From an uncultured Candidatus Saccharibacteria bacterium (GTDB lineage Bacteria > Patescibacteriota > Minisyncoccia > UBA6257 > 2-01-FULL-56-20), in NCBI GenBank assembly GCA_964360585.1, contig CAYHXC010000005.1:7947-71946 (forward strand): a stretch of 64,000 nt of DNA. The letters are read 5' to 3'. Both the position numbers and the translations under genes were made by a program. Positions 22,013 through 43,940 of the stretch are shown piece after piece (the first letter of the stretch is position 1; each line of letters opens with the position of its first letter). The notes beneath the pieces are model-generated. The model ran no database searches. It had not been told where the DNA came from and saw only the letters and a program-made list of their open reading frames with translations.

Positions 22013-23637
22013 TTCTGGTTTTTATTTTTGGCGCGTATGCGCTTCTTGTTTTTAATCTCTATAACTTACAGATAGTCGGGGGCAAAGGGTATATTGCCCG
22101 CGCTGACTCTCAAGCGGCTGGCCTTGATTGGCAAGTTGGCCGGAGGGGTAGCATTTTTTTTACTGATCGGAATGGAAATTTGATGCAGATGGCCGCCATA
22201 AAGGATGTGCCGTTTGTTTTCGCTGTTCCGAAGGATATGGATGACGTGGCCGAGACGGTCCATCAGTTGGTTGCGGTCACTGGTCAGGATCCGAACGAGA
22301 TCATTACTTCTTTAAAAGGCAAAAAACAAGTGGCTTTAGAGAAAAAAGCCTCGGCCGATCTTGTCGAAAAAATCGATGATCTGAAACTCAAAGGAATTTA
22401 TACGAGTGTGAAGCCGACCCGATCGTATCCCTTGAGCTCACTCGCCGCCCATCTTTTAGGTTTTGTCAGTCCCGATAGCGAAGGGGTGGGGGAGAGCGGC
22501 CGGTACGGTGTTGAAAAATTTTACGACAATGAGCTGAAGGGCAGTTCCTCGACGACGAAGAGTGGCGGCTGGAATCAGGGCGAGGACCTCTATCTCACCA
22601 TTGAGCCGAATGTTCAGAAAGAAGCGGAACGAATTTTGAACGATATCGTTAATCGGTTTCAAGCTGTCAGCGGCTTGGCGATTGTTCAAGAACCAAAGAC
22701 CGGAAAGATTTTAGCCTTAGCCGGCGAGCCGACCTTTGATCCCAACAAATATCAGGAAAGCGATTTGAGTACATTTTTGAATCCGGCGACGCAAAAAATC
22801 TATGAGCCCGGTTCGATCTTTAAAGTTTTGACGATGGCGGCTGGTATCGATGCCGGTAAAATTACACCGCAAACAACGTATGTTGATAAAGGAAAGTTAA
22901 CCTTAAATGGCCGGACGGTCAGCAACTGGGACTATAAGACGCACGGCGCCTACGGCAAGATCACTATGACGGACGTGATTGAGAACTCGATTAACACCGG
23001 CGCAATTTTTGCCGAAAAAACGACCGGTCACAAAGTTTTCACGGACTACATGAAAAAATTCGGTTTGGATGAAGAAACGGGCGTGGAGTTGCCCGGCGAG
23101 CTTTCCGGAAATTTAAAGCGATTAAATAGCAAGGAGCCGGATGTCGCTTTTGCCACCGCCTCGTACGGTCAGGGTGTGGCGGTAACGCCTGTCGGACTTT
23201 TGAGCGCCGTTGGAGTATTAGCGAACAAAGGCCTCCTCATGCGGCCGTATGTGAACGCCGAAAGCACTGCAACTGTCGTGCGTCGCGTTGTTTCCGAAAA
23301 AACGGCCAAGCAGGTGACGGATATGATGGTCTCGGCTGTAAAGTTGAACAAAGTGGCGCACATTCCGGGCTACTCTATTGCCGGAAAAACTGGTACGGCC
23401 TTTATCCCTGACTTTAATCATGGTGGTTACACGACCGAAGTCTTCAATACGTACATCGGTTATGGTCCAACCAGCGATCCCAAATTCATCATTCTTTTCC
23501 GTTTAGAAAAACCGGTTGGCGCGCCGCTCGCGGGAACGAGCGTGGTGCCGGCTTTCCGGGAGATGGCGCAATTTATGATTAACTACTATGATATCCCTCC
23601 GGATCATCCGGAAGAAACGAAGAAAGCCACACTGTAA
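21991..23637 (+). CDS. ftsI: Penicillin-binding protein / peptidoglycan D,D-transpeptidase FtsI
   Basis: N-terminal TM, then the transpeptidase motifs SIFK (SxxK), SIN (SxN) and KTGTA. Confidence 0.85.
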   Translation: MAVRFSIILVFIFGAYALLVFNLYNLQIVGGKGYIARADSQAAGLDWQVGRRGSIFFTDRNGNLMQMAAIKDVPFVFAVPKDMDDVAETVHQLVAVTGQDPNEIITSLKGKKQVALEKKASADLVEKIDDLKLKGIYTSVKPTRSYPLSSLAAHLLGFVSPDSEGVGESGRYGVEKFYDNELKGSSSTTKSGGWNQGEDLYLTIEPNVQKEAERILNDIVNRFQAVSGLAIVQEPKTGKILALAGEPTFDPNKYQESDLSTFLNPATQKIYEPGSIFKVLTMAAGIDAGKITPQTTYVDKGKLTLNGRTVSNWDYKTHGAYGKITMTDVIENSINTGAIFAEKTTGHKVFTDYMKKFGLDEETGVELPGELSGNLKRLNSKEPDVAFATASYGQGVAVTPVGLLSAVGVLANKGLLMRPYVNAESTATVVRRVVSEKTAKQVTDMMVSAVKLNKVAHIPGYSIAGKTGTAFIPDFNHGGYTTEVFNTYIGYGPTSDPKFIILFRLEKPVGAPLAGTSVVPAFREMAQFMINYYDIPPDHPEETKKATL

Positions 23638-23769
23638 TCCCTCACCCAATGAGAAAAATAGCTTGACCATGAATTTTCCACATAAACACACAGCCTTCTT
23701 TCATAAAAAGTCGTTTTTAATAAGAGACAAAGTCGTTGCAAGACGGCTGTTTCTCATTGGGTGAGGGAT
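23637..23769 (+). repeat. SD/AUG-sequestering inverted-repeat element, copy 1 (arms ATCCCTCACCCAATGAGAAA / TTTCTCATTGGGTGAGGGAT)
   Basis: 20-bp perfectly complementary arms separated by a ~93-nt loop. The 5' arm overlaps the ftsI stop. The 3' arm ends in GGTGAGGG-ATG, which opens only a 5-codon ORF (MNPRT). Confidence 0.7.
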
Positions 23770-23771
23770 GA

Positions 23772-23900
23772 ATCCCCGCACCTAACGAGAAAAGTGAGAT
23801 GAAATATCAATAATTATACATACAACAATGACAATAAAAGAGGCGAAGATTACATCGAGATTTTGCCGCTTTGCGGCGATTTCTCATTAGGTGAGGGGAT
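23772..23900 (+). repeat. SD/AUG-sequestering inverted-repeat element, copy 2 (the 3' arm supplies the SD and ATG of murF)
   Basis: Arms ATCCCCGCACCTAACGAGAAA / TTTCTCATTAGGTGAGGGGAT. The ATG at 23899 is the murF start. Confidence 0.7.
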
Positions 23901-25128
23901 GAAACCACAAGCCAAATACCTCCTTGAACGTATCCTTAAATACCTGGCCAAAGCGACACTGTGGCGGTATCGACCAGCCATTGTTGGCATTACCGGCAGT
24001 GTTGGCAAGACCTCGACCAAAGAAGCGATCGGAGCCGTCTTAAAGAGCGAGCGAAAAGTGCGCGTGGCTTCCAAGAATTTCAATAACGAGATCGGCCTGC
24101 CACTCACGATTCTGAGTTCGGAAACCGCCATAACCGGTGCGGGATTTTGGGTACGAGTTATTCTCCGGGCAATCTGGAATATTATTCGGAAAACGGACTA
24201 TCCCGAAATTTTGGTTTTGGAGTTTGGGATCGATCGTCCTGGCGATATGCGCTATCTCCTCGAGATCGCCCGACCGAATGTTGGGGTAGTCACGGCGATT
24301 GGTGAGATTCCGGTTCACGTCGAGTACTTCTCCGGGCCGGAAGAAGTGGCTCGAGAAAAGGCTCGTTTGATTGAACAATTGCCGGCCGGCGGATTTGCCA
24401 TCCTGAATTACGATAGCCACATCGTCATGGGTTTGAAAGATCGAACGCGCGCGCATCGGATGAGCTACGGCTTCCATCGTGATGCCGAAGTACGAATCTC
24501 GAATTTCGCCACCAGAATTGAAGAGGGTAATCCGGTGGGAACGAGTTTCAAGCTTGAGTATGCCGGAAATTTTGTTCCGGTTCGTCTCGATCATGTTTTT
24601 GGCCGGGCACAAGCGTACGCCGCCGCCGCGGGTGCTTCCGTCGGATTGATTTTCGGTTTGAACTTGGTTACTATCTCCGAAGCTTTGAAGGATTACCGAC
24701 CACCAGAACATCGTTTTCAGTTGTTGCGCGGCTTGAAAGATACGATCGTAATTGATGATGCCTATAACGCCAGCCCACTTTCGGTTCATGCCGCACTCGA
24801 CACCTTGAAAGATTTGGAGGGTAAGCGAAAAATTGCGATTTTGGGTGACATGCGCGAGATCGGATCATTCGCCGCCGAAGCCCACCAGGACATTGGTCGA
24901 GTGGCGGGGGAGATTGCCGATATTTTAGTCGGCATCGGTCCGAACGCGCGGCATATCGCCGACGGTGCAATCGAAACCGGACTTTCGAAAAAGAATATCC
25001 GTCTTTTCGAAACTGCCGACCAAGCAATTCTCTCGATCCAGGAGCTGATCAAAAAAGGAGATATTATTCTCGTCAAAGCGTCGCACAGTATTGGTTTGGA
25101 AAAAGTAGTAGAAAGTATCAAAGCATAG
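23899..25128 (+). CDS. murF: UDP-N-acetylmuramoyl-tripeptide--D-alanyl-D-alanine ligase
   Basis: Mur ligase P-loop IVGITGSVGKTSTKEAIGAVL with middle and C-terminal Mur ligase domains. Start set at the ATG embedded in the repeat's 3' arm (MKPQAKYL). Confidence 0.85.
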   Translation: MKPQAKYLLERILKYLAKATLWRYRPAIVGITGSVGKTSTKEAIGAVLKSERKVRVASKNFNNEIGLPLTILSSETAITGAGFWVRVILRAIWNIIRKTDYPEILVLEFGIDRPGDMRYLLEIARPNVGVVTAIGEIPVHVEYFSGPEEVAREKARLIEQLPAGGFAILNYDSHIVMGLKDRTRAHRMSYGFHRDAEVRISNFATRIEEGNPVGTSFKLEYAGNFVPVRLDHVFGRAQAYAAAAGASVGLIFGLNLVTISEALKDYRPPEHRFQLLRGLKDTIVIDDAYNASPLSVHAALDTLKDLEGKRKIAILGDMREIGSFAAEAHQDIGRVAGEIADILVGIGPNARHIADGAIETGLSKKNIRLFETADQAILSIQELIKKGDIILVKASHSIGLEKVVESIKA

Positions 25129-25224
25129 GAAATGGCGCCACCCGCCGTAGGCGGGTAAATCGTCCCCGCCCTCCTTCGGAGGGTAACGGCTTCCGCCGGA
25201 GGCGGACGAGAGGACAGCGAATAT

Positions 25225-25296
25225 GGCCTCATCGTCTAACGGCTAGGACAGTGCCCTCTCACGGCACAAATCGGGGTTCGATTCCCCGTGGGGCTA
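25225..25296 (+). tRNA. tRNA-Glu (anticodon CUC)
   Basis: TCGTCTAACGGCTAGGAC D-arm typical of tRNA-Glu, anticodon arm GTGCC-CTCTCAC-GGCAC, T-arm CGGGG-TTCGATT-CCCCG. The acceptor has G-U wobble pairs, so the exact ends are uncertain. Confidence 0.65.
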
Positions 25297-25345
25297 CTAA
25301 AACAAAAAATCGCACTCATCGCAGTGTGGTTTTTTGTTTTAGTAG
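25297..25345. terminator. Long A/T-rich hairpin (CTAAAACAAAAAA...TTTTTTGTTTTAG) after tRNA-Glu; probable terminator
   Basis: Inverted repeat directly 3' of the tRNA. Confidence 0.5.
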
Positions 25346-25374
25346 TTCGGAGAAGAATTGAACGAGCGGAAGGG

Positions 25375-25500
25375 GCTCGCCTCGCTTGAGCTTTGGCGAA
25401 GCGGGTCGGGGAACCACGATTGGTTCCCCGTGTAGGAAATTATTCAAAACCGTGGGTTTTGAAAAGCGAGTGAAGCGAGCGCGTGAGCTTCCCCTTGGGC
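25375..25500. repeat. GC-rich structured repeat (family CTCGCCTCGCT..AGCT..GGCGAAGCGGGTCGG), copy after tRNA-Glu
   Basis: GGGGCTCGCCTCGCTTGAGCTTTGGCGAAGCGGGTCGGGG matches 63785-63830 and 14822-14880. Internal hairpins GGGGAACCACGATTGGTTCCCC and AAAACCGTGGGTTTT. Confidence 0.5.
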
Positions 25501-25788
25501 TTTTTACTATCCGTATCATTTGTTATTATTACTCAAATGAGCTTAGGTATCTTAGTAATAAGCGTTGTTAGTTTTATAGCAAGTGTCATAGCCATATTTG
25601 TATCCATAATGGCCTGGCATAAAAATCGTGCTATATATGACATAGAATCCTTTCCATTAAGAAGCGACAGCATCGGCGGTCTAAGAGCAAAGTTGAATTC
25701 GGGGAAATATACAATACTGGCAGTTCACGATGAAACTCTCAATCCTTCGATTTCCACGAAGGTGCTATTAGGGAAGGTTAAAGAATAA
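25483..25788 (+). CDS. Hypothetical small membrane protein
   Basis: Two predicted TM helices. The true start is probably an internal Met (MSLGILVIS). Confidence 0.35.
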   Translation: MSFPLGFLLSVSFVIITQMSLGILVISVVSFIASVIAIFVSIMAWHKNRAIYDIESFPLRSDSIGGLRAKLNSGKYTILAVHDETLNPSISTKVLLGKVKE

Positions 25789-25805
25789 GATAGTACAATA
25801 CCTAT

Positions 25806-26528
25806 ATGCAAAAACTGATTATCGGGAACTGGAAGATGAATCCAGGCTCACTCGTTGAGGTAAAAAAATTGGTACAGTCTTTAGACAAGGTTAAAGTAGG
25901 AAAGAATGTTTCTGTGGCCATTTGTCCGCCATTTGTGTACCTGCCGCTTTTGAAAACCAAGTTTACACTTGGCGCGCAGGATGCGTTTGGAGAAGAGAAA
26001 GGAGCTTACACCGGAGAGATTTCACCCTCGATGCTTAAAAATCTGGGCGTCGAGTACGTTATCCTTGGTCACTCTGAACGACGGATTCACATTGGAGAAA
26101 CTGACGAACTGATTGCTAAAAAAATTAAAGGAGCTATGGTAGCCGGTTTGAAAGTGATTCTTTGCGTCGGAGAGCCGCTTGCTATGAGAAAGAAAGGAAT
26201 GGCGGCAAGTAAAAAGTATGTGGAAGGCCAGCTTAAGAAAGATTTAAGTCTCTTAAAGCCGAAGGATCGATCTAAAGTTATTGTTGCCTATGAACCTATC
26301 TGGGCGATAAGTACCATGCCTGGGGCAAAGCCGGACAGTCCAGAAGGCGCGGCGGAGATGATCGTTTCTATAAAGAAAATAACCAAAGGAAAAGTTATCT
26401 ACGGTGGATCGGTGAATGGTGCAAATGCTCGAGGATTCTTGGAAAGGAAAGAAATCGACGGAGCCTTACCCGGCGGCGCCAGTCTGAAGCCCGAAGAATT
26501 CAGGAAGATCATTGAAGCCGCCTCTTGA
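25806..26528 (+). CDS. tpiA: Triosephosphate isomerase
   Basis: IIGNWKMN...ILGHSERR...VAYEPIWAIST..GGSV, TIM signatures. Confidence 0.9.
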   Translation: MQKLIIGNWKMNPGSLVEVKKLVQSLDKVKVGKNVSVAICPPFVYLPLLKTKFTLGAQDAFGEEKGAYTGEISPSMLKNLGVEYVILGHSERRIHIGETDELIAKKIKGAMVAGLKVILCVGEPLAMRKKGMAASKKYVEGQLKKDLSLLKPKDRSKVIVAYEPIWAISTMPGAKPDSPEGAAEMIVSIKKITKGKVIYGGSVNGANARGFLERKEIDGALPGGASLKPEEFRKIIEAAS

Positions 26529-26658
26529 TCCCCACACCTAATCAGGAAAGAAAGAAGTATCAGAGACGGACTTTAATTCGAGTCTATATATTAGAAAAGG
26601 GAAGTTTTGAAAGGATGGGGCTGTTTTAGAGAGAAAATTCCTGGTTAGGTGTGGGGAT
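26528..26658 (+). repeat. SD/AUG-sequestering inverted-repeat element, copy 3 (degenerate: the 3' arm ends GGGGATTG, with no ATG)
   Basis: Arms ATCCCCACACCTAATCAGGAAA / TTCCTGGTTAGGTGTGGGGAT. The 5' arm overlaps the tpiA stop codon, and no CDS follows. Confidence 0.65.
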
Positions 26659-26686
26659 TGACTTTTCAATAGTTATCCTGTATAGT
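26658..26686 (+). promoter_or_regulatory. Near-consensus sigma70 promoter (TTGACT-17-TATAGT)
   Basis: TTGACT, a 17-nt spacer, then TATAGT, immediately after repeat copy 3. It is followed about 55 nt later by the hairpin-plus-U-run GCCCCGCCCCAAAGCGGGGTTCGTTTGTT. Confidence 0.5.
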
Positions 26687-27155
26687 CCTAAGCGAATGAG
26701 TGCAGTCCGCAAGGATTACACGATTTGTTCAAACTAGCCCCGCCCCAAAGCGGGGTTCGTTTGTTATTATCGCAGATAATAATCCTGAGCTTGTCGAAGG
26801 GTTTTCATACTGCTATTATCAAAACTACTAGACTGAAGGGCCGTTTAGGGGGTTACAAGGAGAGCACTTATACAAAGGAGTCACATATGGGATCACAAGG
26901 AGAGCACTCATTCTTTAACAAATTCGAGGTCACCACTTGTGATCCCATATGTGATTCTACATACTTGTAGCCCCCAGAGAGCTTGTCCGGAAACCTTTGC
27001 TCGTCGCGAGATCCCGAAATGATCAGCGAGACAAGGAAAAATGAGGCAGGAATAGTCGGAACTATTTCAAGGAGTTTTGACGAAGTCGCAGCCAGCATTA
27101 CGGGATTGCAGTAAGACAAGAGATTTTTGGACATGCTCTAGACTCTAGAAAACTT

Positions 27156-28082
27156 ATGATTCAAGAAAACGTTCCATTTTCTACTCTAGGCAGTTATCGC
27201 CTCGGAGGAAATGTGAGTCATTTGGCCACTCCTCGGACCGAAGAGGAGCTTCTGGCTACGATTCAGCTTCTAAACGACCGTAAATGGCCGGTTTTTATTA
27301 TAGGAAGCGGTACAAATCTCCTGGTTGGCGATGAAGGGTTTTCAGGCCTTATGATCCGGCCGGATTTTTCCTTCATTGAACAGAACGGGAATGAGATCCG
27401 AGTAGGCGCGGGAGTTTTGATGGCGGATCTTTTGGCATATGCGCTTCGAGAAAATTTAGGCGGAATGGAGTGGGCTGGGGGATTGCCGGGGACAGTGGGT
27501 GGCGCAGTGCGCGGCAACGCCGGATGTTTTGGGAGCGAGACAAAAGATTTTATTTTGGGTGTTGAAAGCATTAATCTCCAAACCGGAAAGAAGATAGTTC
27601 GCGAGAAAAAAGACGGTGAGTTCGAGTATCGCTCCAGTATTTTCAAAACAAAATTAGACGGAAAAGAAATTATCACCGCGGCGACGCTTACACTCTTTCC
27701 GCAGGAAAGGAAAATTTCCGAGGCGGTGGCGAATGAGCATATCCAGTACCGCAAAGACCGCCAACCACTCGAATATCCGAACATTGGAAGCATTTTCAAA
27801 AATGTTGATGCACGAAATTTTACCGAAGAGAAACTGAAACCATTTTCTGCGGTGATAAAAAAAGATCCATTTCTGGTTATCCCGACAGCGTATTTAATTT
27901 CCGAAACAGGTTTGAAAGGCACTCGTTCCGGCGGCGCAGAGATCTCGGGAAAGCATCCGAACTTTATTATCAATACCGGGCAAGCGACAGCTAAAGACGT
28001 GAAAACGCTCATATCCCTAGCCCAAGAGAAGGTGAAGGAGAAATTCTCTATACAGATCGAGCCTGAAGTCATCGAAATTTGA
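27156..28082 (+). CDS. murB: UDP-N-acetylenolpyruvoylglucosamine reductase
   Basis: FAD-binding domain GGNVSHLATPRTEEELLATIQLLNDRKWPVFIIGSGTNLLV plus the C-terminal MurB domain. Confidence 0.85.
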   Translation: MIQENVPFSTLGSYRLGGNVSHLATPRTEEELLATIQLLNDRKWPVFIIGSGTNLLVGDEGFSGLMIRPDFSFIEQNGNEIRVGAGVLMADLLAYALRENLGGMEWAGGLPGTVGGAVRGNAGCFGSETKDFILGVESINLQTGKKIVREKKDGEFEYRSSIFKTKLDGKEIITAATLTLFPQERKISEAVANEHIQYRKDRQPLEYPNIGSIFKNVDARNFTEEKLKPFSAVIKKDPFLVIPTAYLISETGLKGTRSGGAEISGKHPNFIINTGQATAKDVKTLISLAQEKVKEKFSIQIEPEVIEI

Positions 28083-28095
28083 GGGGCTACGTTCG

Positions 28096-28140
28096 TTCCT
28101 AATACTTCTAACTCACGATCGTGAGTTAGAAGTATTAGGG
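28096..28140. terminator. Perfect ~20-bp palindrome after murB (CCTAATACTTCTAACTCACGA/TCGTGAGTTAGAAGTATTAGG)
   Basis: Inverted repeat immediately 3' of the murB stop. Confidence 0.55.
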
Positions 28141-28716
28141 AGTCCAGTTTGGTAGGTAAAACTTTTTGATCTAATCCTTCCGCCAAAGAAATATTTGTTT
28201 AAATAAGCTCTCGAAGTTTCACGCACATCCCCCTGGTCAGTGAACAATATTATTTTTTGAAAAGCTTTGTATGCGCTCTTCTTAAAAGTGAGGATATTAC
28301 TTCGAAGAAGCTATCGGAAGTGTTGCGAGCTTGGATTTTCGCGAAGTAAAAATAGTTGAGAAGTCCGACGTGAAAGTCGGACTCCGACCTCGCAAAAAGC
28401 GAGCGTCGGAGTTATCCACAGATTTTCTCCCAAAATGGAAAACCAATCTGCTATACTTAGTTTGTAATCGAGAAGCAACAAAATTTTCATAAGAAATTTT
28501 GAGAAAGGTCGAGTGGTCTATATAAAACGTTTTATATAAAACAAATGGCAAAGAAAAAAGCTACGAAGAAGAAAGCAGGAGGAAAGAAAAAGAAGCGAGC
28601 ATAGTTTCTCCTAACCCCCGCGCAAGCGGGGGTTTTGCTTTTCACGGCGTTTATTTTTTTGCGTGACTCTCGAAAAAGTGATATAATAGCATCAGGAAAA
28701 ATCCTGTACAAAAACC

Positions 28717-29055: not shown

Positions 29056-29058
29056 TAA

Positions 29059-31665: not shown

Positions 31666-31686
31666 TTACAGACAAAGAGTTGAATC

Positions 31687-31989: not shown

Positions 31990-31991
31990 TT

Positions 31992-34190: not shown

Positions 34191-34211
34191 AAAGTCCCGG
34201 ATTAAGGGGAC

Positions 34212-35033: not shown

Positions 35034-35447
35034 ATAACTTTGCAGGTAGGGGTGAAGGCTCTGCTTAAAAACAAAGAGGGCCAGTATCTGCTTCTACGGC
35101 GATCACTCGAGAAGTATCCGGGTATTCAAGGACGTTGGGACATTGTTGGTGGACGGATTGATCCGGGGAGCGAGTTGATTGAAAACTTGAAAAGAGAGAT
35201 TAAGGAGGAAACCGGCTTAAACCTTGTGGGTGCTCCTACGTTGGTTGGTGCCCAAGATATTTTGAGGCCGGGCAAGCATGTGGTTCGGTTGACCTATATT
35301 GGCGAAGTGGAGGGCGAGATTGTCTTAGACGAGAGTGAGAACGATCAGTACAAGTGGTATGTGTGGGAGGAGATTCTGAAAATCGATGATCTCGATATGT
35401 ATTTTAAGGAACTTTTATCGGATCTAGTAAAGGTGATTCAGAAATAA
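35022..35447 (+). CDS. NUDIX hydrolase
   Basis: NUDIX box GGRIDPGSELIENLKREIKEETGL. Confidence 0.8.
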   Translation: MENQITLQVGVKALLKNKEGQYLLLRRSLEKYPGIQGRWDIVGGRIDPGSELIENLKREIKEETGLNLVGAPTLVGAQDILRPGKHVVRLTYIGEVEGEIVLDESENDQYKWYVWEEILKIDDLDMYFKELLSDLVKVIQK

Positions 35448-35487
35448 CATTCTAACATTCTGCAGAATGTTAGAATGTTTGTGAAAT

Positions 35488-36189: not shown

Positions 36190-36334
36190 ATTGACTTCGT
36201 TGGAGAGAGTATGTAAAAAGGAGTCAGGACATTGATTTCAAACTACTACTTGTTGCGGGCGTTCGCGCTCAAAGCAGGGCTTCTTTTGCTCGCAGAAGAA
36301 GTGAACCGTAGCTTGGGCTACAAAAGGAAACAAC

Positions 36335-37465
36335 ATGAGCCGTCAAGATGAAGCAGATCTTCTGAAGATTGGATTCGGCGCCGGGGGAAATGATTTCCTT
36401 GCCGTGCATTGGTTCCGATCTGCCACTCACGAGGAGCGAATTCACGCCGTTCAAGTGGCACTGGAAGAAGCGGGGCAGAAGAATGAAGACAAGGTTGGGA
36501 TTGAACTCTTCGCTTTGTTGGAGAATATGGTGGATCTTCAGGAAGAGTTGGCGGAAGCTGCCAAGCCGACAGGGCGTCACTACGGCGAAGCTGCTGAGAG
36601 AGCCAAGCAAATCATTCGTTCGTACGTCGCAGATCTCTACTGGAAGTTGCCTAACCTTCGATTCTCGGGTTATTCCAGCAGGCAGGATCCTGCAGCGACG
36701 ATGGTCGAGACCAAAATGGCACTCCTAAAGAGGATCATTGGCGCATGGCTTCCTCAAGGGACGAAGGAAAGTCGTGAAGCATTCGGATTCATAATCGCAG
36801 TTTGCTATCCTCTTCCCACAAACCAGTTTCGACCTAGCGGAGAGAGTGTGGCCGAAACGAAGGCTCGCGGCCGAATGGTCTTTCCCGAGGAGCGGGAAAA
36901 AATATTTGCGCTCATCCGCGACCACATCTCTTTCTGGAAAGCAGACCAGCTGGACCCGTGGATTTTGGAGCCACGCCTTCCAGCTGATATCCAGAAAATA
37001 CTGATCATCACTCGGGCTCGGAATGGCGGAATGGAGCTGGTGCGGCGGGAATTGGAGCAGGCACGCATTCTACAGCCACTCGATTCATCTGGACGCTCGC
37101 CAGCGGTATTCGCATTTCTGGAGAGATTTTTTCCGGAATTAAGGAACTTCGACGCTCGGCTGGCCCAGCTTCGGGAGCAGATGCGACCGGCAAAACATTG
37201 GTCATCGGACAAGGACCGAGAAATCGGAGGTTCAGAAATGGTCCTGGGAGAGATCACAGTGGAAATCTCCAGCTTGCAATCTGCCCTCATTCGGGTGACC
37301 CTCGAGAAGGACTGTTCTCGAGAGTTGGGAATGGATATTGCCGGTCGAGTCCGCCGTCATGTTCGGGCCTGGGTGGAAAAGAATTCCGGCATCGACATTT
37401 CCCTCGAAGTGAATGGAGGAAAGGGGAATCTGTGTATTGCAGAAACCCAGCGCATTCGAAAGTAG
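36335..37465 (+). CDS. Hypothetical protein in a GC-rich island
   Basis: 376-aa ORF with no recognised motifs and conspicuously higher GC than its neighbours. Confidence 0.4.
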   Translation: MSRQDEADLLKIGFGAGGNDFLAVHWFRSATHEERIHAVQVALEEAGQKNEDKVGIELFALLENMVDLQEELAEAAKPTGRHYGEAAERAKQIIRSYVADLYWKLPNLRFSGYSSRQDPAATMVETKMALLKRIIGAWLPQGTKESREAFGFIIAVCYPLPTNQFRPSGESVAETKARGRMVFPEEREKIFALIRDHISFWKADQLDPWILEPRLPADIQKILIITRARNGGMELVRRELEQARILQPLDSSGRSPAVFAFLERFFPELRNFDARLAQLREQMRPAKHWSSDKDREIGGSEMVLGEITVEISSLQSALIRVTLEKDCSRELGMDIAGRVRRHVRAWVEKNSGIDISLEVNGGKGNLCIAETQRIRK

Positions 37466-37527
37466 CGTACCCGCAGGCCACATAACTGGCCTGTTTTTTA
37501 TTTGGGCAAAAGATTACTATTGGAGTT

Positions 37528-38016
37528 ATGGAAAATCAGCACCTTCACGAAGTCGTCATTACAGCTATGATTGTTCAAGGGGGCAAGTACCTGATTACAA
37601 AGCGATCGGCCTCGAAGAAGCGTTTTCCCAATATGTGGACAGTTCCGGGAGGAAAGTTAGAGTCTAAGGACTATCTCGAACTGCCCAAAGATACCAAAGA
37701 CTATTGGTACAACGTTCTAGAACGAACTCTACGGCGGGAAGTAAAAGAAGAGGTTGGTATCGACATCGAAAATATTGAGTACGTAACCAGCCTTGCTACT
37801 GTGCACGCTGATGGCAGTCCGTCGTTGGTCATCTCGTGCATGGCTGATTATAAAGGCGGGGAAATTACGCTTGATCCGGCAGAATGCGATGAGTATGCCT
37901 GGGTGAGCTTAGAAGAAGCTAAATCAAAAGATCTCATTGATGGTATTTATGATGAGTTGGCAATGGTAGAGAATAAACGCCTGGGTAAAAAATCGGAATG
38001 GCAACGATCTGAATAG
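37528..38016 (+). CDS. NUDIX hydrolase
   Basis: PGGKLESKDY...TLRREVKEEVGIDIE NUDIX box. Confidence 0.8.
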   Translation: MENQHLHEVVITAMIVQGGKYLITKRSASKKRFPNMWTVPGGKLESKDYLELPKDTKDYWYNVLERTLRREVKEEVGIDIENIEYVTSLATVHADGSPSLVISCMADYKGGEITLDPAECDEYAWVSLEEAKSKDLIDGIYDELAMVENKRLGKKSEWQRSE

Positions 38017-38075
38017 AGCTGGCACACTTGGAAAAAAGAAGGGGAGGCCGTAAGATTGTATCGCACTAATATGCG

Positions 38076-38209
38076 TCCCCGCACCTAATGGGAAGTGGGG
38101 TGGTAAAAATAGAGTTAGTTAACTGATCATTATGATTATGCAAAAAGTCGGCAACCTTAGAGCGGAACTCCGTTTCTTAGAAACGGTTCTTCCCATTAGG
38201 TGAGGGGAT
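38076..38209 (+). repeat. SD/AUG-sequestering inverted-repeat element, copy 4 (the 3' arm supplies the SD and ATG of the yvcK-like gene)
   Basis: Arms TCCCCGCACCTAATGGGAAG / CTTCCCATTAGGTGAGGGGA-TG. The ATG at 38208 is the CDS start. A small hairpin CCGTTTCTTAGAAACGG with a U-run lies just 5' of the 3' arm. Confidence 0.7.
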
Positions 38210-39164
38210 GAAGATAAAAAACATCGTCACCATTGGCGGCGGGACAGGTACGTTTACGGTTCTCTCAGGGCTGAAGACTTTTCCTTTGAATCTTTCGGCT
38301 ATTGTTTCTATGTCTGACGATGGAGGATCGACCGGAATGTTACGGGACCAGTACGGTGTTCTGCCTCCTGGCGATATTCGCCGCGCTCTCGTAGCCCTGT
38401 CCGAATCCAGTGAAACACTCCGTGATCTTTTCAACTATCGTTTTGAAGAGGGTGGTTTGCATGGGTACAACTTCGGCAATCTTTTCTTGGCCGCGCTTGA
38501 AAAAGTAACCGGCGACTTCACCTCGGCCATCCGCGAGGCTTCAAATCTTCTGAGTATTAATGGTGAGGTGGTGCCCGTCACATTGGATGATGTTCGCTTG
38601 TATGCCAAGTTGATCGATGGAAAGATATTGCGTGGCGAAACGCGGATCGATATTCCCCGTACTGCCAATCGGCCGAAAATCGAAACGGTTTGGCTTGAAC
38701 CGACGGCGCGTATAAATCCCAGCGTCCGTCGGGTGCTCCATGTGGCTGACTTGATTATTATTGGCCCTGGAGATTTGTATACCAGTATCATTCCGAACCT
38801 CTTGGTCAAAGGTATGCCCGAAGTAATTCGCGACTCTAAGGCCAAAAAAGTGTATATCGGGAATATTATGACCAAGCAGGGCGAAACAGACGACTTCAAA
38901 GCTGAAGATTTTGTAACGGAAGTAGAAAAGTATCTTGGACAAGGTATCTTAGATTACGCTTTGTTTAATAAGAAAAGACCAAAGCCATCGACGCTCGCCC
39001 GATATCGTAAAAAGGGGGCGCATTTTATTGATGCTGGAACCATAAACCTGAAGAGTAAAAAGCCGAAGTATCTGAAAGCTGATCTTCTCGATCCGGGTCC
39101 ATTTATCCGTCACTCGCCCAAAAAGTTAGCGGAAGCGATTCTCGCGCTTTTCTCTCAGAAATAA
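38208..39164 (+). CDS. YvcK/UPF0052-family (CofD-like) protein
   Basis: IVTIGGGTGTFTVLSGLK...SMSDDGGSTGMLRDQYGVLPPGDIRRALVAL. Confidence 0.8.
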   Translation: MKIKNIVTIGGGTGTFTVLSGLKTFPLNLSAIVSMSDDGGSTGMLRDQYGVLPPGDIRRALVALSESSETLRDLFNYRFEEGGLHGYNFGNLFLAALEKVTGDFTSAIREASNLLSINGEVVPVTLDDVRLYAKLIDGKILRGETRIDIPRTANRPKIETVWLEPTARINPSVRRVLHVADLIIIGPGDLYTSIIPNLLVKGMPEVIRDSKAKKVYIGNIMTKQGETDDFKAEDFVTEVEKYLGQGILDYALFNKKRPKPSTLARYRKKGAHFIDAGTINLKSKKPKYLKADLLDPGPFIRHSPKKLAEAILALFSQK

Positions 39165-39172
39165 GAAAAGAG

Positions 39173-39880
39173 TTGCGGAAAGAGCTCGACTGCGGCTATA
39201 ATAGCGAGATGAATAAAAATTCACTACTTGTAATCGCGGCCATCCTACTCTTAATTATTGGCGTATGGTACATCTTTTTTATGGAACCGCCCGGGAATCT
39301 CGAAAATGACACACAGCAGGAACTATCCGAACCCTATTCATTAGAAAATCAGACAAGTTCAAATACTGTAAAGACATCACAAAATAATACAACTCAATCA
39401 ATAACCATGCACACAATCGCACTCGATACTAATTACGGAAAGATCGTTTTCGAAACCTATGACGAAGATGCGCCGAAGACGGTTAATAACTTTATTACGC
39501 TCGCTAATAAAGGTTTCTATAATAACGTTGTTTTCCACAGGATTATTAAAGGATTTATGATTCAGGGCGGTGATCCGACAGGCACCGGTACAGGCGGCCC
39601 AGGATATGCATTTGCCGATGAGCTGAATCCGGCTACCCCTTCCTATAAAGCGGGCTACAAAAGAGGAGTAGTGGCCATGGCGAACGCCGGGCCAAATACC
39701 AATGGCAGTCAGTTCTTTATCATGCATCAGGACTATCCGTTACCGAATAGCTATTCCATTTTTGGGAAGGTTGTAGAGGGGCAGGAAGTGGTAGACAAAA
39801 TTGCGACTACCCCAAGAGATCGAAGCGATAGGCCATTAACGCCGGTAACTATCACTTCGGTAACTGTCTCGGACAAATAG
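39173..39880 (+). CDS. ppiB: Peptidyl-prolyl cis-trans isomerase, cyclophilin type, with an N-terminal membrane anchor
   Basis: FHRIIKGFMIQGGDPTGTGTGGPGY...NGSQFFI. The start may be the internal Met (MNKNSLLVIAAILL). Confidence 0.85.
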   Translation: MRKELDCGYNSEMNKNSLLVIAAILLLIIGVWYIFFMEPPGNLENDTQQELSEPYSLENQTSSNTVKTSQNNTTQSITMHTIALDTNYGKIVFETYDEDAPKTVNNFITLANKGFYNNVVFHRIIKGFMIQGGDPTGTGTGGPGYAFADELNPATPSYKAGYKRGVVAMANAGPNTNGSQFFIMHQDYPLPNSYSIFGKVVEGQEVVDKIATTPRDRSDRPLTPVTITSVTVSDK

Positions 39881-39886
39881 GAATGA

Positions 39887-40020
39887 ATCCCCACACCTAA
39901 CCGGAAATGAGGAATGAAAAAGTAATTAACCAATGAATCATATATCTTTTATAAAAGAGGCGAAAATTATCCTAGGATTTAGTCGCTTTAGAGCGACTGT
40001 TTCCGGTTAGGTGTGGGGAT
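39887..40020 (+). repeat. SD/AUG-sequestering inverted-repeat element, copy 5 (the 3' arm supplies the SD and ATG of the ABC ATPase gene)
   Basis: Arms ATCCCCACACCTAACCGGAAA / TTTCCGGTTAGGTGTGGGGAT-G. It begins 7 nt after the ppiB stop and contains a promoter-like TTAACC-17-TATAAA in the loop. Confidence 0.7.
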
Positions 40021-40936
40021 GAAAGCACTCTCCGTTTCAAATCTCGAAAAAATATACGCCAATGGCGTTCAAGCCCTCAAGGGGGTTAGTCTCAATATTG
40101 AGGAGGGTGATTTTTTCGCGCTTCTTGGTCCGAATGGCGCTGGGAAAACGACGATTATTGGGATCACCTGTGGTCTCGTAAATAAAACCGGCGGCACCGT
40201 CCGGGTTTTTGGTCGCGACATTGATCAGTCGCTCGACGAGGCAAAGTCATTTATCGGTCTCGTGCCGCAAGAGATGAACTTCAATATTTTCGAACGCGTG
40301 GAGGATATTGTGGTGGATCAAGCCGGATTTTACGGTATTCCACAGTCGGTGGCTAGGAAAGATGCCGAGAAGTATCTGAAACAGCTTGGTCTTTGGGAGA
40401 AGCGAAACGATAAGTCCATGACACTCTCGGGCGGTATGAAACGGCGCCTCCTAATCGCCCGAGCCCTGATTCACCATCCCAAACTTTTAATCCTCGACGA
40501 ACCGACGGCCGGCGTGGATATCGAACTGCGTCGCGGTATGTGGGATTTTCTCCGCGAACTAACGAATGAAAAGGGGATTACGATTATTTTAACCACGCAT
40601 TACTTAGAAGAAGCAGAACAGCTCTGTAAAAACGTGGCCATTATTAATAAGGGTGAGATCGTGGAGCAGGGAAGTATGCAGAAAGTTCTCTCCGGTTTAA
40701 ATAAAGAAACGTTTATTCTCTATCTTAAAAATCCGATGACCGATCATGTACTTTCCGCCATTCACAAATTCCATCCGAAACGTGTGGACGACGCCACACT
40801 CGAAGCCAGTGTTTCGAATGGCGACACGGTGACTGAACTGATCGAGACGCTTAAAAATAATCAGATTCAGGTTGGCAGTATGCGGAACAAGTCGAACCGC
40901 CTTGAAGAAGTATTTGTGAGCCTTATTTCAAAATAA
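40019..40936 (+). CDS. ABC transporter ATP-binding protein (ABC-2 exporter type)
   Basis: Walker A GPNGAGKTT, signature LSGGMKRRL, Walker B LILDEPT. Start set at the ATG inside the repeat arm; the track used an upstream GTG. Confidence 0.85.
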   Translation: MKALSVSNLEKIYANGVQALKGVSLNIEEGDFFALLGPNGAGKTTIIGITCGLVNKTGGTVRVFGRDIDQSLDEAKSFIGLVPQEMNFNIFERVEDIVVDQAGFYGIPQSVARKDAEKYLKQLGLWEKRNDKSMTLSGGMKRRLLIARALIHHPKLLILDEPTAGVDIELRRGMWDFLRELTNEKGITIILTTHYLEEAEQLCKNVAIINKGEIVEQGSMQKVLSGLNKETFILYLKNPMTDHVLSAIHKFHPKRVDDATLEASVSNGDTVTELIETLKNNQIQVGSMRNKSNRLEEVFVSLISK

Positions 40937-41709
40937 TGAGTAACAAACGCATATTCATTGCCTTTATGACCATCGTCCGGCGCGAAGTCGGCCGTTTCTT
41001 CCGTATCTGGACGCAGACGATGTTGCCTTCAGTTGTTACGTCTGTTCTCTACTTCTTGATCTTCGGCGCTTTTATCGGCTCGCAGGTCCGGCCGATTAGT
41101 GGCGTTTCCTATATGGAGTTTATCGTGCCTGGATTAGTCATGATGGCAGTTATCACGAACTCTTTCCAAAATGTGGTTGGCTCATTTTTCACCTCCAAAT
41201 TTATGAAAAGTATTGAGGAAATCTTAGTCTCACCAATGCCCTCGTGGGTAATCATTGCTGGTTATACGACTGGCGGTGTTTTGCGTGGGGTGGTGGTCGG
41301 CGCTTTAGTACTCATCGTCTCACTTTTTTTTACCAGTATTTCTATTACTCACCTTGGTCTCGTTATCCTCTTCATGGTTTTAACGGCATTTCTTTTTTCC
41401 TTCGCTGGACTCTTTAACGCGCTTTTTGCCAAGAACTTTGATCAGATCTCGATCATTCCGGTTTTCGTTTTAACACCGCTAACGTACCTCGGGGGAGTGT
41501 TCTACTCCGTGAAAGCCTTGCCGGCATTTTGGCAAAATCTTTCCTATCTTAATCCGATTCTCTACATGGTAAATGGTTTCCGTTACGGTTTCTCTGGAAT
41601 TTCCGATGTAAATATTACTTCCGGCCTCCTTATCCTTGTCGGCCTTAATGCTATTCTGGCCTTTGTCGACTGGCGTCTTATCGAAAAAGGTGTGGGGCTG
41701 AAGAATTAA
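40936..41709 (+). CDS. ABC-2 family transporter permease
   Basis: Six predicted TM helices; the start overlaps the ATPase stop. Confidence 0.75.
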   Translation: MSNKRIFIAFMTIVRREVGRFFRIWTQTMLPSVVTSVLYFLIFGAFIGSQVRPISGVSYMEFIVPGLVMMAVITNSFQNVVGSFFTSKFMKSIEEILVSPMPSWVIIAGYTTGGVLRGVVVGALVLIVSLFFTSISITHLGLVILFMVLTAFLFSFAGLFNALFAKNFDQISIIPVFVLTPLTYLGGVFYSVKALPAFWQNLSYLNPILYMVNGFRYGFSGISDVNITSGLLILVGLNAILAFVDWRLIEKGVGLKN

Positions 41710-41739
41710 AATAAAAGAAAAAGCCGCCTTTGAGAGCGG

Positions 41740-42036
41740 CTAGCGGAGCAAACTTGAAGCAAAGAGAGGAGGTTCAGGTGGGAACTCGTCAAGACCTTTC
41801 AGGGTCCACCCTCCCAGTTCCCAAGCTTCTTGAATGTCAGTGAATGAGACTTCGTCACAGTAGATCTCGGTCGGTTGATCGTCGATATGGTGACGAAGAT
41901 ACGTAATCACCACATCGGCAGATCCGATAAAAACGAGATCGTCCATTTTAGGATTTGCATCCGTAACCCACTCGCGTTCTATGTGCCAGGACTGGTCTCC
42001 GTGTTCGTGGAAGACAAGTAGTTTGAACCGAGCCAT
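41740..42036 (-). CDS. Hypothetical protein
   Basis: 98-aa ORF with no recognised motifs. Confidence 0.35.
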   Translation of the reverse strand: MARFKLLVFHEHGDQSWHIEREWVTDANPKMDDLVFIGSADVVITYLRHHIDDQPTEIYCDEVSFTDIQEAWELGGWTLKGLDEFPPEPPLFASSLLR

Positions 42037-42240
42037 CCAACCTCCTGCGATTAACTATATAGATACTATAATTTCAGCCTATAAATACCAAGCCCTTGCT
42101 TTTTTTAGAGGGATATGGTATAGTGCCTGTGTAAGTGTTTCTCCAGGCGTTTCTTTCCTGTCGTGCTTCATTATGTAAGCTGATGGAATAGGTAGCCGTA
42201 ATAAAGAGAAGAGGTCGGCTTACATAACGACGAACGTACA

Positions 42241-42531
42241 ATGGCAAAAAGATTATACGTTGGCGGATTACCGTATTCTACATCAGATGCGGAGCTCAAA
42301 GACGCGTTTATGCGCGCCGGAAACGTCGAGTCGGCTACAGTCATCATGGATAAGATGACCGGCCGCTCGAAGGGCTTCGGATTTGTGGAGATGTCAAACG
42401 ACGACGATGCAGACAAGGCTATTACCATGTGGAATGGCCAGGAGCTCGGCGGACGACGGTTGACCGTGAACGAAGCTCGTCCGATGGAGGCTCGCGCCCC
42501 GCGGACTGGCGGCTACGGAATGCGGAACTAG
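42241..42531 (+). CDS. RRM-type RNA-binding protein
   Basis: RNP-2 LYVGGL and RNP-1 KGFGFVEM, with a C-terminal RG-rich tail. Confidence 0.85.
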   Translation: MAKRLYVGGLPYSTSDAELKDAFMRAGNVESATVIMDKMTGRSKGFGFVEMSNDDDADKAITMWNGQELGGRRLTVNEARPMEARAPRTGGYGMRN

Positions 42532-42552
42532 TTTTCGCTCTGTGGTTTTAAA

Positions 42553-42585
42553 GGAAAACCCCGATTTATTTCGGGGTTTTTCTAT
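42553..42585 (+). terminator. Rho-independent terminator (AAAACCCCGA-TTTATT-TCGGGGTTTTTCTAT)
   Basis: GC hairpin plus a U-run after the RRM gene. Confidence 0.65.
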
Positions 42586-42618
42586 TATCCGTGTATTGCT
42601 TAGGAGTAATTACTTATT

Positions 42619-42734
42619 GTCATTGCGAGGAGCGTAGCGACCGCGGCAATCTCCTGCCTCTTTTTTCATCTTGAGATTGCCACGCCCTGCGGGCTCCCTC
42701 CTACGCTAAAGCTGCGGACGGGCAGGCGCATGAC
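42619..42734. repeat. Nested-palindrome MITE-like repeat, copy C
   Basis: GTCATTGCGAGGAGCGTAGCGACCGCGGCAATCTC...GAGATTGCCACGCC...GGGCAGGCGCATGAC. Outer TIRs plus an inner inverted repeat. It ends 6 nt before the ATG of the next CDS. Confidence 0.7.
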
Positions 42735-42740
42735 AATTCT

Positions 42741-43160
42741 ATGAGTTATCATAAAAAGATGTTTAAGCGCTACAGTCTTATTTTTGTCGTGGCCTTTGTT
42801 TTGAATCTCATCTGGGAAAATCTCCACTCGTTTTTATATCTGAACTATCAAGGCGGACCGATTACCGAACTGATTCTCCTCCGCGCTACACTTTTCGATG
42901 CAGTTTTTATCACACTCCTTTTCTTACTGACCGATTCTCTAAAACTGAAAAATAGAGGATTGTATATACAGATTGGCTTAAGTTTTCTCGTTACTGTTTT
43001 AATTGAGGTTTTTGCGCTCGCGACGACTCGTTGGGTCTATGGTTTATACATGCCAATTATTCCATTTCTCGAAGTTGGTTTTACGCCGATTCTTCAACTG
43101 CCCCTTCTGACTTGGCTTACGGGGCGGCTAGTCTTGACTTCCTCTCAAAGAAAGATATAA
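42741..43160 (+). CDS. Hypothetical integral membrane protein
   Basis: About 4 TM helices. Confidence 0.45.
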   Translation: MSYHKKMFKRYSLIFVVAFVLNLIWENLHSFLYLNYQGGPITELILLRATLFDAVFITLLFLLTDSLKLKNRGLYIQIGLSFLVTVLIEVFALATTRWVYGLYMPIIPFLEVGFTPILQLPLLTWLTGRLVLTSSQRKI

Positions 43161-43324
43161 AGAGTACGTTCAGGCCAAACGCTTGGGCGGAGTATTGGTA
43201 AGACTCCTTAAAGAACTTCCTGACTACACCGCAAAAGGTGCGGCAGTGGGGGGTTGTTTAAGCAGTATTTTCGCTTGACCCCTTACCAAAACAACAGCTC
43301 TTCGACAAGAGAAGAGGAGGAGTA

Positions 43325-43672
43325 ATGACTAAACTTTTAGAGCGAGTTCTTTTTGTGGTGCCGTTCTTGATGATTGCGATATCTGTTTGGAGTGGCAGGG
43401 GGTTTGAGGAGACTATTAAGACTGAGCTCTTTCTTTCCGGAATAAGTTTGTTTTTTGTTCTCTTCCTTTCCTCTTTAGGAACTACGCCTACCGCCCGCTC
43501 ACGGGGCGGACTATTCCCAGATTCCGGTCTTTTGGACAAGACACCCTGGCAAGTGGTGGGGATGATTTTGTTTACGATGCGATGGTTTATTGCCGCTCAA
43601 GGGGTTTTGGTTGTGGGACTTGTTATTTACTGGTGTCTAGCTGAGCCTCAATCATTCGAAATACGTCACTAA
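43325..43672 (+). CDS. Hypothetical integral membrane protein
   Basis: About 3 TM helices. Confidence 0.4.
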   Translation: MTKLLERVLFVVPFLMIAISVWSGRGFEETIKTELFLSGISLFFVLFLSSLGTTPTARSRGGLFPDSGLLDKTPWQVVGMILFTMRWFIAAQGVLVVGLVIYWCLAEPQSFEIRH

Positions 43673-43808
43673 TTTCTTTATCCTTCCGATTATTCGGGAG
43701 GTTTTTATTTTCGCTTGCGTAAGTAGGACATTTCTGATATAGTTTTTTCGCTGAAAACATCTGCGAACGCAGCTGTTTTTATTCTAAGAGGGATACTCAA
43801 TTGAACGA

Positions 43809-43940
43809 ATCCCCACACCTATTGGGAAATCTAGGAAAAAATCAACGAGTTAATTATTTATTTATCTATGCAAAAGTCGTCAATTTATAACTTAGGGTAT
43901 GGCCGTCCGCAAACGGCTGTTTCCCAATAGGTGTGGGGAT
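43809..43940 (+). repeat. SD/AUG-sequestering inverted-repeat element, copy 6 (the 3' arm supplies the SD and ATG of typA)
   Basis: Arms ATCCCCACACCTATTGGGAAA / TTTCCCAATAGGTGTGGGGAT-G. A small hairpin CCGTCCGCAAACGG with a U-run lies just before the 3' arm. Confidence 0.7.

Follow-up and report, generated by a model that had tools for sequence, protein, structure and literature searches.

Six hairpin-forming inverted repeats in the genome of an uncultured Candidatus Saccharibacteria bacterium are, in our judgement, probably mobile elements. They lie in a stretch of 64,000 nucleotides (contig CAYHXC010000005.1 of assembly GCA_964360585.1, positions 7,947 to 71,946), which we analyzed as a whole and call the window, and we take them to be members of a hairpin-element family that is widespread in Patescibacteria, also known as the candidate phyla radiation (CPR). 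The six copies lack an open reading frame (ORF) and resemble MITEs (miniature inverted-repeat transposable elements). Comparison of flanks and of filled and empty sites indicates that members of the family insert with a 4-bp duplication of the target, that a longer form carrying a gene for a small GIY-YIG nuclease moves as a unit, and that the termini together with the duplication regenerate the signal disrupted by the insertion. We infer that the nuclease takes part in this mobility and that the inserts have effects at the RNA level. A sequence-only reading of the window had left the choice between a mobile MITE and a family of regulatory RNAs; the former proved essentially right, given the 4-bp duplications, a precise empty site, and an ORF-bearing partner with a GIY-YIG gene in the window itself.

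All six copies were recovered from the window sequence at the coordinates first reported for them, with the arms and spacing described there. An inverted-repeat search gave arm pairs of 20-22 nt, 95-100% complementary and separated by 89-93 nt, and the complete yield of a motif-anchored local-alignment scan of the whole window was these six copies and one further pair (18873-19172). The invariant termini CCCC.CAC / GTG.GGGG are found in every copy and likewise in 82 elements of the family. We scanned one genome per species (596 Gb) with the pattern TCCCCNCACCTA-N80-110-TAGGTGNGGGGA, for which about two chance matches were estimated, and obtained 28 loci. Their hosts include Saccharibacteria, Paceibacterota, Kerfeld-, Lipton-, Komeili-, Nomura- and Brennerbacteria, together with an Omnitrophota metagenome-assembled genome (MAG) with five copies and single Planctomycetota, Stahlbacteria and other MAGs. 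The arms run on inward as element-specific complementary sequence at all 28 loci, and the family termini can be written as (T/C)CCCCNCACC...GGTGNGGGG(A/G), followed inward by 8-12 variable, mutually complementary bases.

With the element bounds defined as (T/C)CCCC...GGGG(A/G), the 4-bp direct flanks are identical in 31 of 81 unique elements, while shuffling the right flanks among elements (10,000 trials) gave an expectation of 4.4 +/- 1.9 and a maximum of 12. The signal exists at length 4 only (13 elements at 3 bp, 2 at 5 bp), it is lost one base further out, and inverted flank matches number only 2. When ORF-bearing elements are taken alone, a perfect 4-bp duplication is present in 22 of 50 unique elements, compared with 2.6 +/- 1.5 expected. 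Particularly, the duplicated word varies among copies on a single contig (GTTA, ATAA and TTGA in locus L101) and within the window, where the duplication is perfect at copies 2 and 5 (TGAA) and copy 3 (TTGA), so it is not part of the element. No link between the duplicated 4-mer and internal arm bases, as in an IS608-style guide, was evident by eye.

Movement of the ORF-bearing unit can be followed through one protein, P0134, whose exact sequence recurs on numerous short contigs. Nine of the ten contigs fetched have the 258-nt ORF in 100% identical form, and the P0134 element is joined to three different left flanks, all ending in ATGAA, and three different right flanks, all beginning with TGAA. 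These flanks combine as A-X, A-Z, A-Y, C-X and B-Y (L245-L254, L263), which means that copies have recombined or that the assembly is chimeric across the 303-bp repeat. One of the sites lies between the genes for an S41 peptidase and ribosomal protein L9 (rplI). We looked for its empty counterparts by means of an L9 search and fetched contigs encoding 88-90% identical L9. The filled site in L246 reads ...tttaTAGcttaatcA TGAA (element) TGAA agttatcttgcaaaaagac..., and the empty one in L261 reads ...tttaTAGcttaatcATGAAagttatcttgcaaaaagac...; L255-L260 are also empty, with the same junction and ATGAG, and in them the peptidase gene is directly followed by rplI. Filled and empty sites differ by exactly the element and one TGAA, at the ATG of rplI, and this comparison indicates that the element is inserted at the rplI start codon and has duplicated TGAA. 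In the filled state rplI starts with GTG, which consists of the last G of the element and the duplicated TG. We based this comparison on the raw sequences; a MAFFT alignment misplaced the right flank.

The window contains an ORF-bearing member of the family, 4.5 kb upstream of copy 1, whose arms have CACC..AACGAG in common with those of copy 2. PF01541 is the sole domain of its 85-aa product, with the invariant Tyr, Arg, His and Glu aligned, and the residues that do not vary in the family (Y5, Y16, G18, R26, H30, N31 and E62) are intact. Among solved structures, those nearest to it in sequence belong to the UPF0213 proteins 1zg2 (E 2.5e-12) and 1ywl, with SLX1 next. The TAA stop of an upstream ORF (18884-18886) falls within the left arm. 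A comparable arrangement is found in L005, where three ORF-less copies lie beside an element of ~330 bp with the same arms and an 84-aa GIY-YIG ORF; tblastn with this ORF matched the window at 18896-19150 with 54% identity. Homologues of the nuclease are abundant (4,421 clusters at 50% identity in a profile search at E <= 1e-10), and many are on very short contigs, where repeats typically end up. We fetched 80 metagenomic loci encoding relatives of the nuclease and inspected them for arms. Inverted arms tightly bracket 62 of 71 unique GIY-YIG genes, almost always with the same terminal word, and the strict motif pair is present in 56 of 81 GIY-YIG loci. This ORF-bearing form measures about 283-319 bp (mode 303), and its lone gene encodes a single-domain GIY-YIG nuclease of 83-85 aa. 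The element in L098, for example, has arms TCCCCGCACCTAAT.../...ATTAGGTGAGGGGA between TGAA/TGAA flanks, and these arms have the G/A asymmetry seen in window copies 2 and 4. In L051, a paralogous GIY-YIG gene is enclosed by arms of another terminal word (GCCCCTCACTTGG), and ORF-less copies of that variant are found nearby. The nuclease gene points the same way as its upstream neighbor 49 times out of 55 (49 versus 6), and by reading we saw no obvious Shine-Dalgarno (SD) sequence in the leaders of these genes. Their arrangement suggests that they are expressed by read-through from upstream.

The possibility has to be weighed that the repeats are ordinary MITEs moved in trans by a DDE-type transposase encoded elsewhere, with the GIY-YIG gene as a frequent passenger. 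A 4-bp duplication that is fixed in length and varies in sequence is what DDE transposition typically leaves, no GIY-YIG enzyme is known to be a transposase, and the ORF-less copies hold unrelated cargo, a tRNA included. Against this, the 115 sequences we scanned yielded no pair of termini 0.5-4 kb apart and no transposase, which also led us to reject a conventional insertion sequence (IS) with the same ends. Moreover, the arms hug the GIY-YIG ORF at the 62 bracketed loci and leave no space for a second gene, the arm variant tracks the GIY-YIG paralogue, the inner arms covary instead of preserving a fixed protein-binding word, and a related single-domain GIY-YIG family binds its flanking hairpin repeats (PMC11893778). 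We therefore consider mobilization by a DDE enzyme unlikely. Two other ideas were discarded. The ORF-less copies are not deletion derivatives of the GIY-YIG element, as their loops resemble neither its ORF nor one another. Viral carriage was rejected after the strict ORF-bearing pattern gave 0 matches in IMG/VR and a looser one gave 120 loci, of which 5 had extended arms and resembled unrelated GC palindromes.

The ends of the element account for the placement of the window copies at gene starts. The element ends in TAGGTGNGGGG(A/G), and its last base and the TG of a duplicated TGNN complete a start codon. Four window copies terminate in this way on the ATG of murF, a cofD/yvcK-like gene, an ABC ATPase gene and typA (see the table for positions), as had been claimed; Pfam identities support these assignments, and public gene calls agree on the four starts (409, 318, 305 and 604 aa, respectively). 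The proposal that the 3' arm consists of the SD and the ATG holds only in part: the SD is plausible, not demonstrated, given the few SDs in this region, and the element supplies only the first base of the start codon, with the TG coming from the duplicated target. In the 23 gene starts between 23899 and 43939, a clear SD precedes only about 3-6 genes, and 8 of the 23 genes begin with ATGAA, which makes TGAA a common target at gene starts. At copies 2, 4, 5 and 6, the left flanks (A|TGAA, A|TGCG, A|TGAA and A|CGAA) show the old start codon, intact or decayed. Across the family, 18 of 153 element ends form at the junction an ATG or GTG that opens an ORF of at least 70 codons, and open frames number 33 in the junction frame versus 4 and 10 in the other two. 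Both ends of the element are capable of this rebuilding. At the far end, in mirror position, a relic ATG accompanies 6 of the 18 start-forming cases, in a 4-bp register, and 1 of 146 other ends; six further cases of the Omnitrophota type, read from the sequences, have the relic ATG in a 3-bp register.

Other signals at the borders of genes are involved as well. As first described, three copies begin on or within 7 nt of an upstream stop codon: the stops of ftsI, tpiA (26526-26528) and ppiB lie 0-7 nt from the 5' arm. Of the two TTGA words duplicated at copy 3, one contains the stop codon TGA of tpiA and the other opens the -35 box TTGACT, and insertions at TTGAC boxes followed by a -10-like hexamer were recognized by eye in L039, L044, L046 and L103. 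Elements abut or overlap tRNA ends in L051, L069 and L107, and the rebuilding of these ends seems to follow the pattern of the start codons. The near-consensus promoter that had been noted behind copy 3 is real (26658-26686, 10/12) and is the only strong promoter-like site. Nevertheless, it is the host's and not the element's own, as it lies just outside the copy and its -35 box TTGACT overlaps the duplicated TTGA. The promoter-like hexamers reported within several loops did not hold up, since no loop contains such a site at the 9/12 threshold of the scan.

Several observations on variants of the family are recorded here. The Omnitrophota MAG (JACPAW01; L001, L004, L017, L018, L027) carries GC-rich relatives of 107-158 bp in tandem arrays, in which the spacing is 3 bp (TGA/TCA), not 4, and several copies lie exactly at an ATG. 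Termini of the form (A/G)CCCCTCACTTG characterize a sister subfamily, which is found in L051 (1116-1404, 2697-2974 and 2812-2944) and L036 (185-478 and 215-367). One of its copies contains a paralogous GIY-YIG ORF and the others are ORF-less with a nested smaller copy, and the flanks of the nested copies are inverted, not direct. Minimal elements made up of arms and a short loop occur in L005 (5605-5650, 46 bp), where the element ends on the ATG of a 406-aa ORF, and in L101 (2545-2614, 70 bp). At the tRNA overlaps (L051 1116-1782, L069 1766-1772, L107 1025-1028), element termini cover the first or last tRNA bases; a tRNA-Ala begins with the element's GGGGC, and TCCA is duplicated at a tRNA 3' end. 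In L002 (224-328), a perfect 17-bp stem of family arms encloses a whole tRNA-Thr (243-314, minus strand).

Pairing between the arms is retained in the family. Long-stem folding of each window copy gives -39 to -54 kcal/mol (z = -5.3 to -8.1 against dinucleotide shuffles, with 0 of 200 shuffles folding as well). In 82 family members, positions 11-20 of the arms display up to four Watson-Crick pair types, and inner-arm pairing is 83% within an element versus 39% when right arms are dealt to other elements, a figure that is partly circular because the sample was pre-selected for 15/20 matches. The earlier argument that covariation reflects selection on pairing is upheld, but the pairing need not take place in RNA. 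Under the regulatory RNA reading, the stem would hide the SD and AUG of cell-envelope and translation genes until RNase III, an attenuator or a trans factor opened it for co-regulation. Very stable stems do bury an SD-like word and the AUG, the arms remain paired despite the divergence of the loops, and all orientable window copies share one orientation with a GC hairpin beside the 3' arm. That hairpin, said to be present with a U-run in every copy, is found adjoining the 3' arm in 5 of 6, and only two passed the terminator scan. On the other hand, the family has target duplications and an empty site, an ORF-bearing form exists, and elements adjoin unrelated genes, tRNAs and promoters in many phyla, with either end facing the gene, so that a family serving cell-envelope and translation genes finds no support. 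Moreover, many elements, those with TAAA flanks among them, are not next to a start codon, and arm mismatches in ORF-oriented elements are not biased toward G:U over A:C (G:T 48 versus A:C 45). In an Rfam search of the whole window only four tRNAs reached gathering scores, and no family matched the repeats. Regulation as the reason for the family is accordingly rather improbable to us; an effect of an insert on translation in situ is likely, as a consequence of the insertion.

A number of points weigh against the six copies being mobile members of this family, or against the nuclease as their driver. No empty site or polymorphism was found for the six copies, and over the repeats there is no difference among the three public assemblies of this genome, which comes from the Hainich aquifer (well H51, 0.1-um fraction). 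Protein identity to the nearest relatives is only about 54-58% (M3 peptidase), synteny with them is absent, and this lack of close syntenic relatives makes orthologous comparison of the window sites impossible. The window's own GIY-YIG element has flanks GCAG/AGGT without recognizable duplication, and it has C/G termini and CACCATAAC where the six copies have T/A termini and CACCTAA; with this mismatch, trans-mobilization of the six copies by the window's nuclease is unproven. All five orientable copies share one orientation, which passive insertion would not predict. Roughly one third of ORF-bearing elements have non-matching flanks, often TTYA...TRAA, which requires recombination between copies or another process. 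To our knowledge, GIY-YIG nucleases do not catalyze strand transfer, and a 4-bp duplication is the classical signature of DDE transposases. Finally, the loops are too diverged for recent transposition from a single master (they show no similarity to one another in blastn-short, or to the GIY-YIG ORF) while the arms are near perfect, so something besides recent copying keeps the arms paired.

This last point could be explained by a domesticated system in which the hairpins are nuclease cleavage sites, maintained by the host, that modulate DNA uptake or recombination near particular genes, and in which mobility is only historical. Such a function has been shown for SsnA and its NTS repeats in Neisseria (PMC11893778), the window copies look old with arms intact, and they cluster within 20 kb around the dcw-cluster and translation genes. 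Nevertheless, identical copies in several flanks and the filled/empty pair point to current mobility in at least some lineages, and the published Ssn repeat consensus gave 0 matches. We hold domestication to be very improbable and return to mobile hairpin elements as the probable identity of the six copies.

A mechanism for their insertion and tolerance can be proposed. The GIY-YIG protein may be the cognate enzyme, as it is the sole gene ever found inside the arms and arm variants track protein variants. It would recognize the folded arms in single-stranded or cruciform DNA and drive mobility. Recognition of the folded form is suggested by the inner arms, which keep their pairing rather than their sequence and lack a G:U bias, and by the analogue SsnA, which binds and cuts single-stranded DNA (ssDNA) beside its hairpin repeats (PMC11893778); conversely, it would explain why pairing and not sequence is conserved there. 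As these genomes are gene-dense, the insertions that survive are those at gene punctuation. Where a TGNN just after the A of a start codon is the target, the old ATG stays with the left copy of the duplication, and the last base of the element (A or G) with the TG of the right copy makes a new ATG or GTG, preceded by the AGGTG of the terminal word at an SD-like spacing. Preservation of the same kind extends to stop codons (T[AG]A), to the -35 box (TTGAC) and to the ends of tRNAs. For the window, this model predicts empty junctions such as ...caaataggaATGAAagcact....

In the mRNA, the perfect stem would loop out the insert and bring the upstream stop or relic ATG beside the new start. The outer stem would hold the SD-like word and the AUG. 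Ribosomes halting at an upstream stop (copies 1, 3 and 5) may melt this stem, and ribosomes on the mini-ORF ATG-AAT-CCC-CNC-ACC-TAA, which runs from a relic ATG into the 5' arm, may do so too; melting would free both signals, and the insertion would be tolerated. Such mini-ORFs are also present in L016, L022 and L098. More tentatively, and with less conviction than we attach to mobility itself, we propose that the ~300-bp unit of arms and 85-aa nuclease may be an autonomous element of a new mechanistic class, in which a hairpin-recognizing single-domain GIY-YIG protein, and not a DDE, HUH, serine or tyrosine enzyme, drives 4-bp-duplicating insertion, and whose ends have become adapted to restoring a start codon along with a ribosome-binding-like sequence. 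In that case, the Ssn/NTS systems of Neisseria, Wolbachia and others would be its relatives, either domesticated or diverged. An element of this kind would be suited to life within the gene punctuation of streamlined genomes, and we know of no smaller autonomous mobile element.

Table. Positions in the window of the family members and of the signals next to them
Feature	Position	Strand	Details
ORF-bearing family member	18873..19172	+	arms CCCCCACACCATAACGAGTTT (18873-18893) and AAACTCGTTTGGTGTGGGGG (19153-19172) around the GIY-YIG gene
GIY-YIG nuclease gene	18896..19153	+	single-domain, 85 aa; PF01541/PF10544
Copy 1, ORF-less	23638..23768	+	TCCCTCACCC...GGGTGAGGGA; flanks GTAA / TGAA; ftsI stop TAA (23635-23637) abuts
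Mini-ORF, five codons	23768..23785	+	ATG AAT CCC CGC ACC TAA; starts on the ATG made where copy 1 ends and extends into the 5' arm of copy 2; function presumed
Copy 2, ORF-less	23773..23899	+	duplication TGAA at 23769-23772 and 23900-23903; A23899 is the A of the murF ATG
Copy 3, ORF-less	26529..26657	+	duplication TTGA at 26525-26528 and 26658-26661
Host promoter-like site	26658..26686	+	TTGACT-17-TATAGT directly behind copy 3, outside the element
Relic ATG of copy 4	38071-38073		
Mini-ORF	38071..38088	+	ATG CGT CCC CGC ACC TAA; begins on the relic ATG and extends into the 5' arm of copy 4; function presumed
Copy 4, ORF-less	38076..38208	+	flanks TGCG (38072-38075) / TGAA (38209-38212); A38208 is the A of the cofD/yvcK-like ATG
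Relic ATG of copy 5	39883-39885		2 nt past the ppiB stop TAG (39878-39880)
Mini-ORF	39883..39900	+	ATG AAT CCC CAC ACC TAA; begins on the relic ATG and extends into the 5' arm of copy 5; function presumed
Copy 5, ORF-less	39888..40019	+	duplication TGAA at 39884-39887 and 40020-40023; A40019 is the A of the ABC-ATPase ATG
Copy 6, ORF-less	43810..43939	+	flanks CGAA (43806-43809) / TGAA (43940-43943); A43939 is the A of the typA ATG; relic codon decayed to ACG

Pfam identifies the neighbors of the six copies as ftsI, murF, tpiA, a NUDIX protein, a CofD/YvcK-like protein, a cyclophilin, an ABC ATPase and TypA/BipA. Other repeats were noticed in the window. A second inverted-repeat family is represented at 4947-5051 and 58267-58372, with ATCGAA..T.ACTATCT common to the arms; the 3' arm of the first copy ends on the ATG, at 5049, of a downstream ORF (5049-5879), and the second copy lies just upstream of a minus-strand gene starting at 58253. 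Arms of 25 nt at 21529-21688, 92% complementary and 110 nt apart, have no sequence relationship to the main family; they occupy the space from the stop of ORF 20645-21529 to an ATG at 21698. Arms of 28 nt containing CCCTCCTAAC / GTTAGGAGGG are found at 9434-9517 and 9519-9560, directly followed by a sequence (GCCGCCCTAGCTCAGTGGTAGAGCAGCGC) that resembles a tRNA's 5' half, some 50 nt ahead of tRNA-Thr (9609-9681). Perfect palindromes are located at 28098-28139 (42 bp), 14000-14039 (40 bp) and 35446-35479 (34 bp). Among the fetched contigs, L235-L244 (about 3400-3930) display a strain polymorphism between the genes for EF-P and a glycosyltransferase, where either a 114-aa GIY-YIG gene or, on the opposite strand, a gene for a 128-aa '23S rRNA intervening sequence protein' is present.

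The family bears on several questions. The published suggestion that Ssn-type nucleases form IS-like units becomes testable through duplications, an empty site and identical copies in several flanks. It also offers a way for a mobile element to persist in gene-dense CPR genomes of ~1 Mb, by landing on punctuation and rebuilding it from termini and duplication. For annotation, it accounts for the recurrent 'GGTGNGGGG-ATG' start context and the intergenic hairpins of 100-300 bp in Patescibacteria, as well as for contig breaks at these repeats. If the nuclease recognizes folded arms, the arm and protein variants would constitute a ready panel of structure-guided ssDNA nucleases.

Among known systems, the Correia, ERIC and RUP MITEs are intergenic elements of 100-160 bp with terminal inverted repeats and a target duplication, and they are co-transcribed into stable stem-loops able to alter the expression of neighboring genes. 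The hairpin family resembles them in size, terminal inverted repeats, target duplication and intergenic location. However, its duplication is 4 bp (TA in Correia), and its termini are presumably unrelated to the 26-bp terminal repeats of Correia elements. It also departs from MITEs in its covarying inner arms, which keep no transposase-binding word, in ends that regenerate a start codon, and in the only cognate gene found, which encodes a nuclease and not a DDE transposase. With REP/BIME-RAYT and IS200/IS605 systems the family shares dispersed intergenic hairpin repeats, tandem arrays, a small cognate enzyme gene flanked by repeats and a likely action on single-stranded DNA, whereas those systems use a Y1 HUH transposase without target duplication, in place of GIY-YIG and 4 bp here. 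Homing endonucleases of the I-TevI type are likewise selfish GIY-YIG nuclease genes that do not destroy the host gene and apparently depend on host read-through. In contrast, the hairpin family has no DNA-binding domain, intron, intein or long homing site, and occupies many unrelated sites that have only the 4-bp target in common.

The closest parallel is provided by the Ssn/NTS system, in which a 94-aa single-domain GIY-YIG ssDNA nuclease is encoded between hairpin repeats that are dispersed genome-wide in hundreds of copies, a layout (NTS-ssnA-NTS) that its authors likened to an insertion sequence (Chenal et al., Nat Commun 2025, PMC11893778). That survey was built on RefSeq reference genomes and CPR genomes fell outside it (PMC11893778). 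In the literature we searched, there is no description of the CPR hairpin element, so its appraisal as an undescribed DNA element family is sustained there, with the qualification that this analogous system appeared in 2025. The SRM consensus HGTCWY..YYVSBRH..WNVSBRG..RNCYNB (PMC11893778) gave 0 matches in the window and 0 in the 81 GIY-YIG loci, an NCBIfam search for Ssn membership returned only sub-threshold matches, and tblastn against plasmids found only genes of the YazA/UPF0213 type. The two systems share a very small single-domain GIY-YIG protein (94 aa for Ssn, 85 aa in the window), a gene with, on either side, a repeat that occurs elsewhere in the genome as many ORF-less copies, and hairpin-capable inverted repeats whose variants track those of the protein. 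They differ in that each flank of ssn is a complete hairpin of 20-50 nt, whereas here the flanks are the halves of one long hairpin whose loop is the gene or a spacer of 25-110 nt, and in that no target duplications, empty sites or mobility were reported for Ssn/NTS (PMC11893778). The element is a MITE-like hairpin repeat tied to an Ssn-like GIY-YIG nuclease, and what is new in it is the demonstrable mobility and the rebuilding of start codons.

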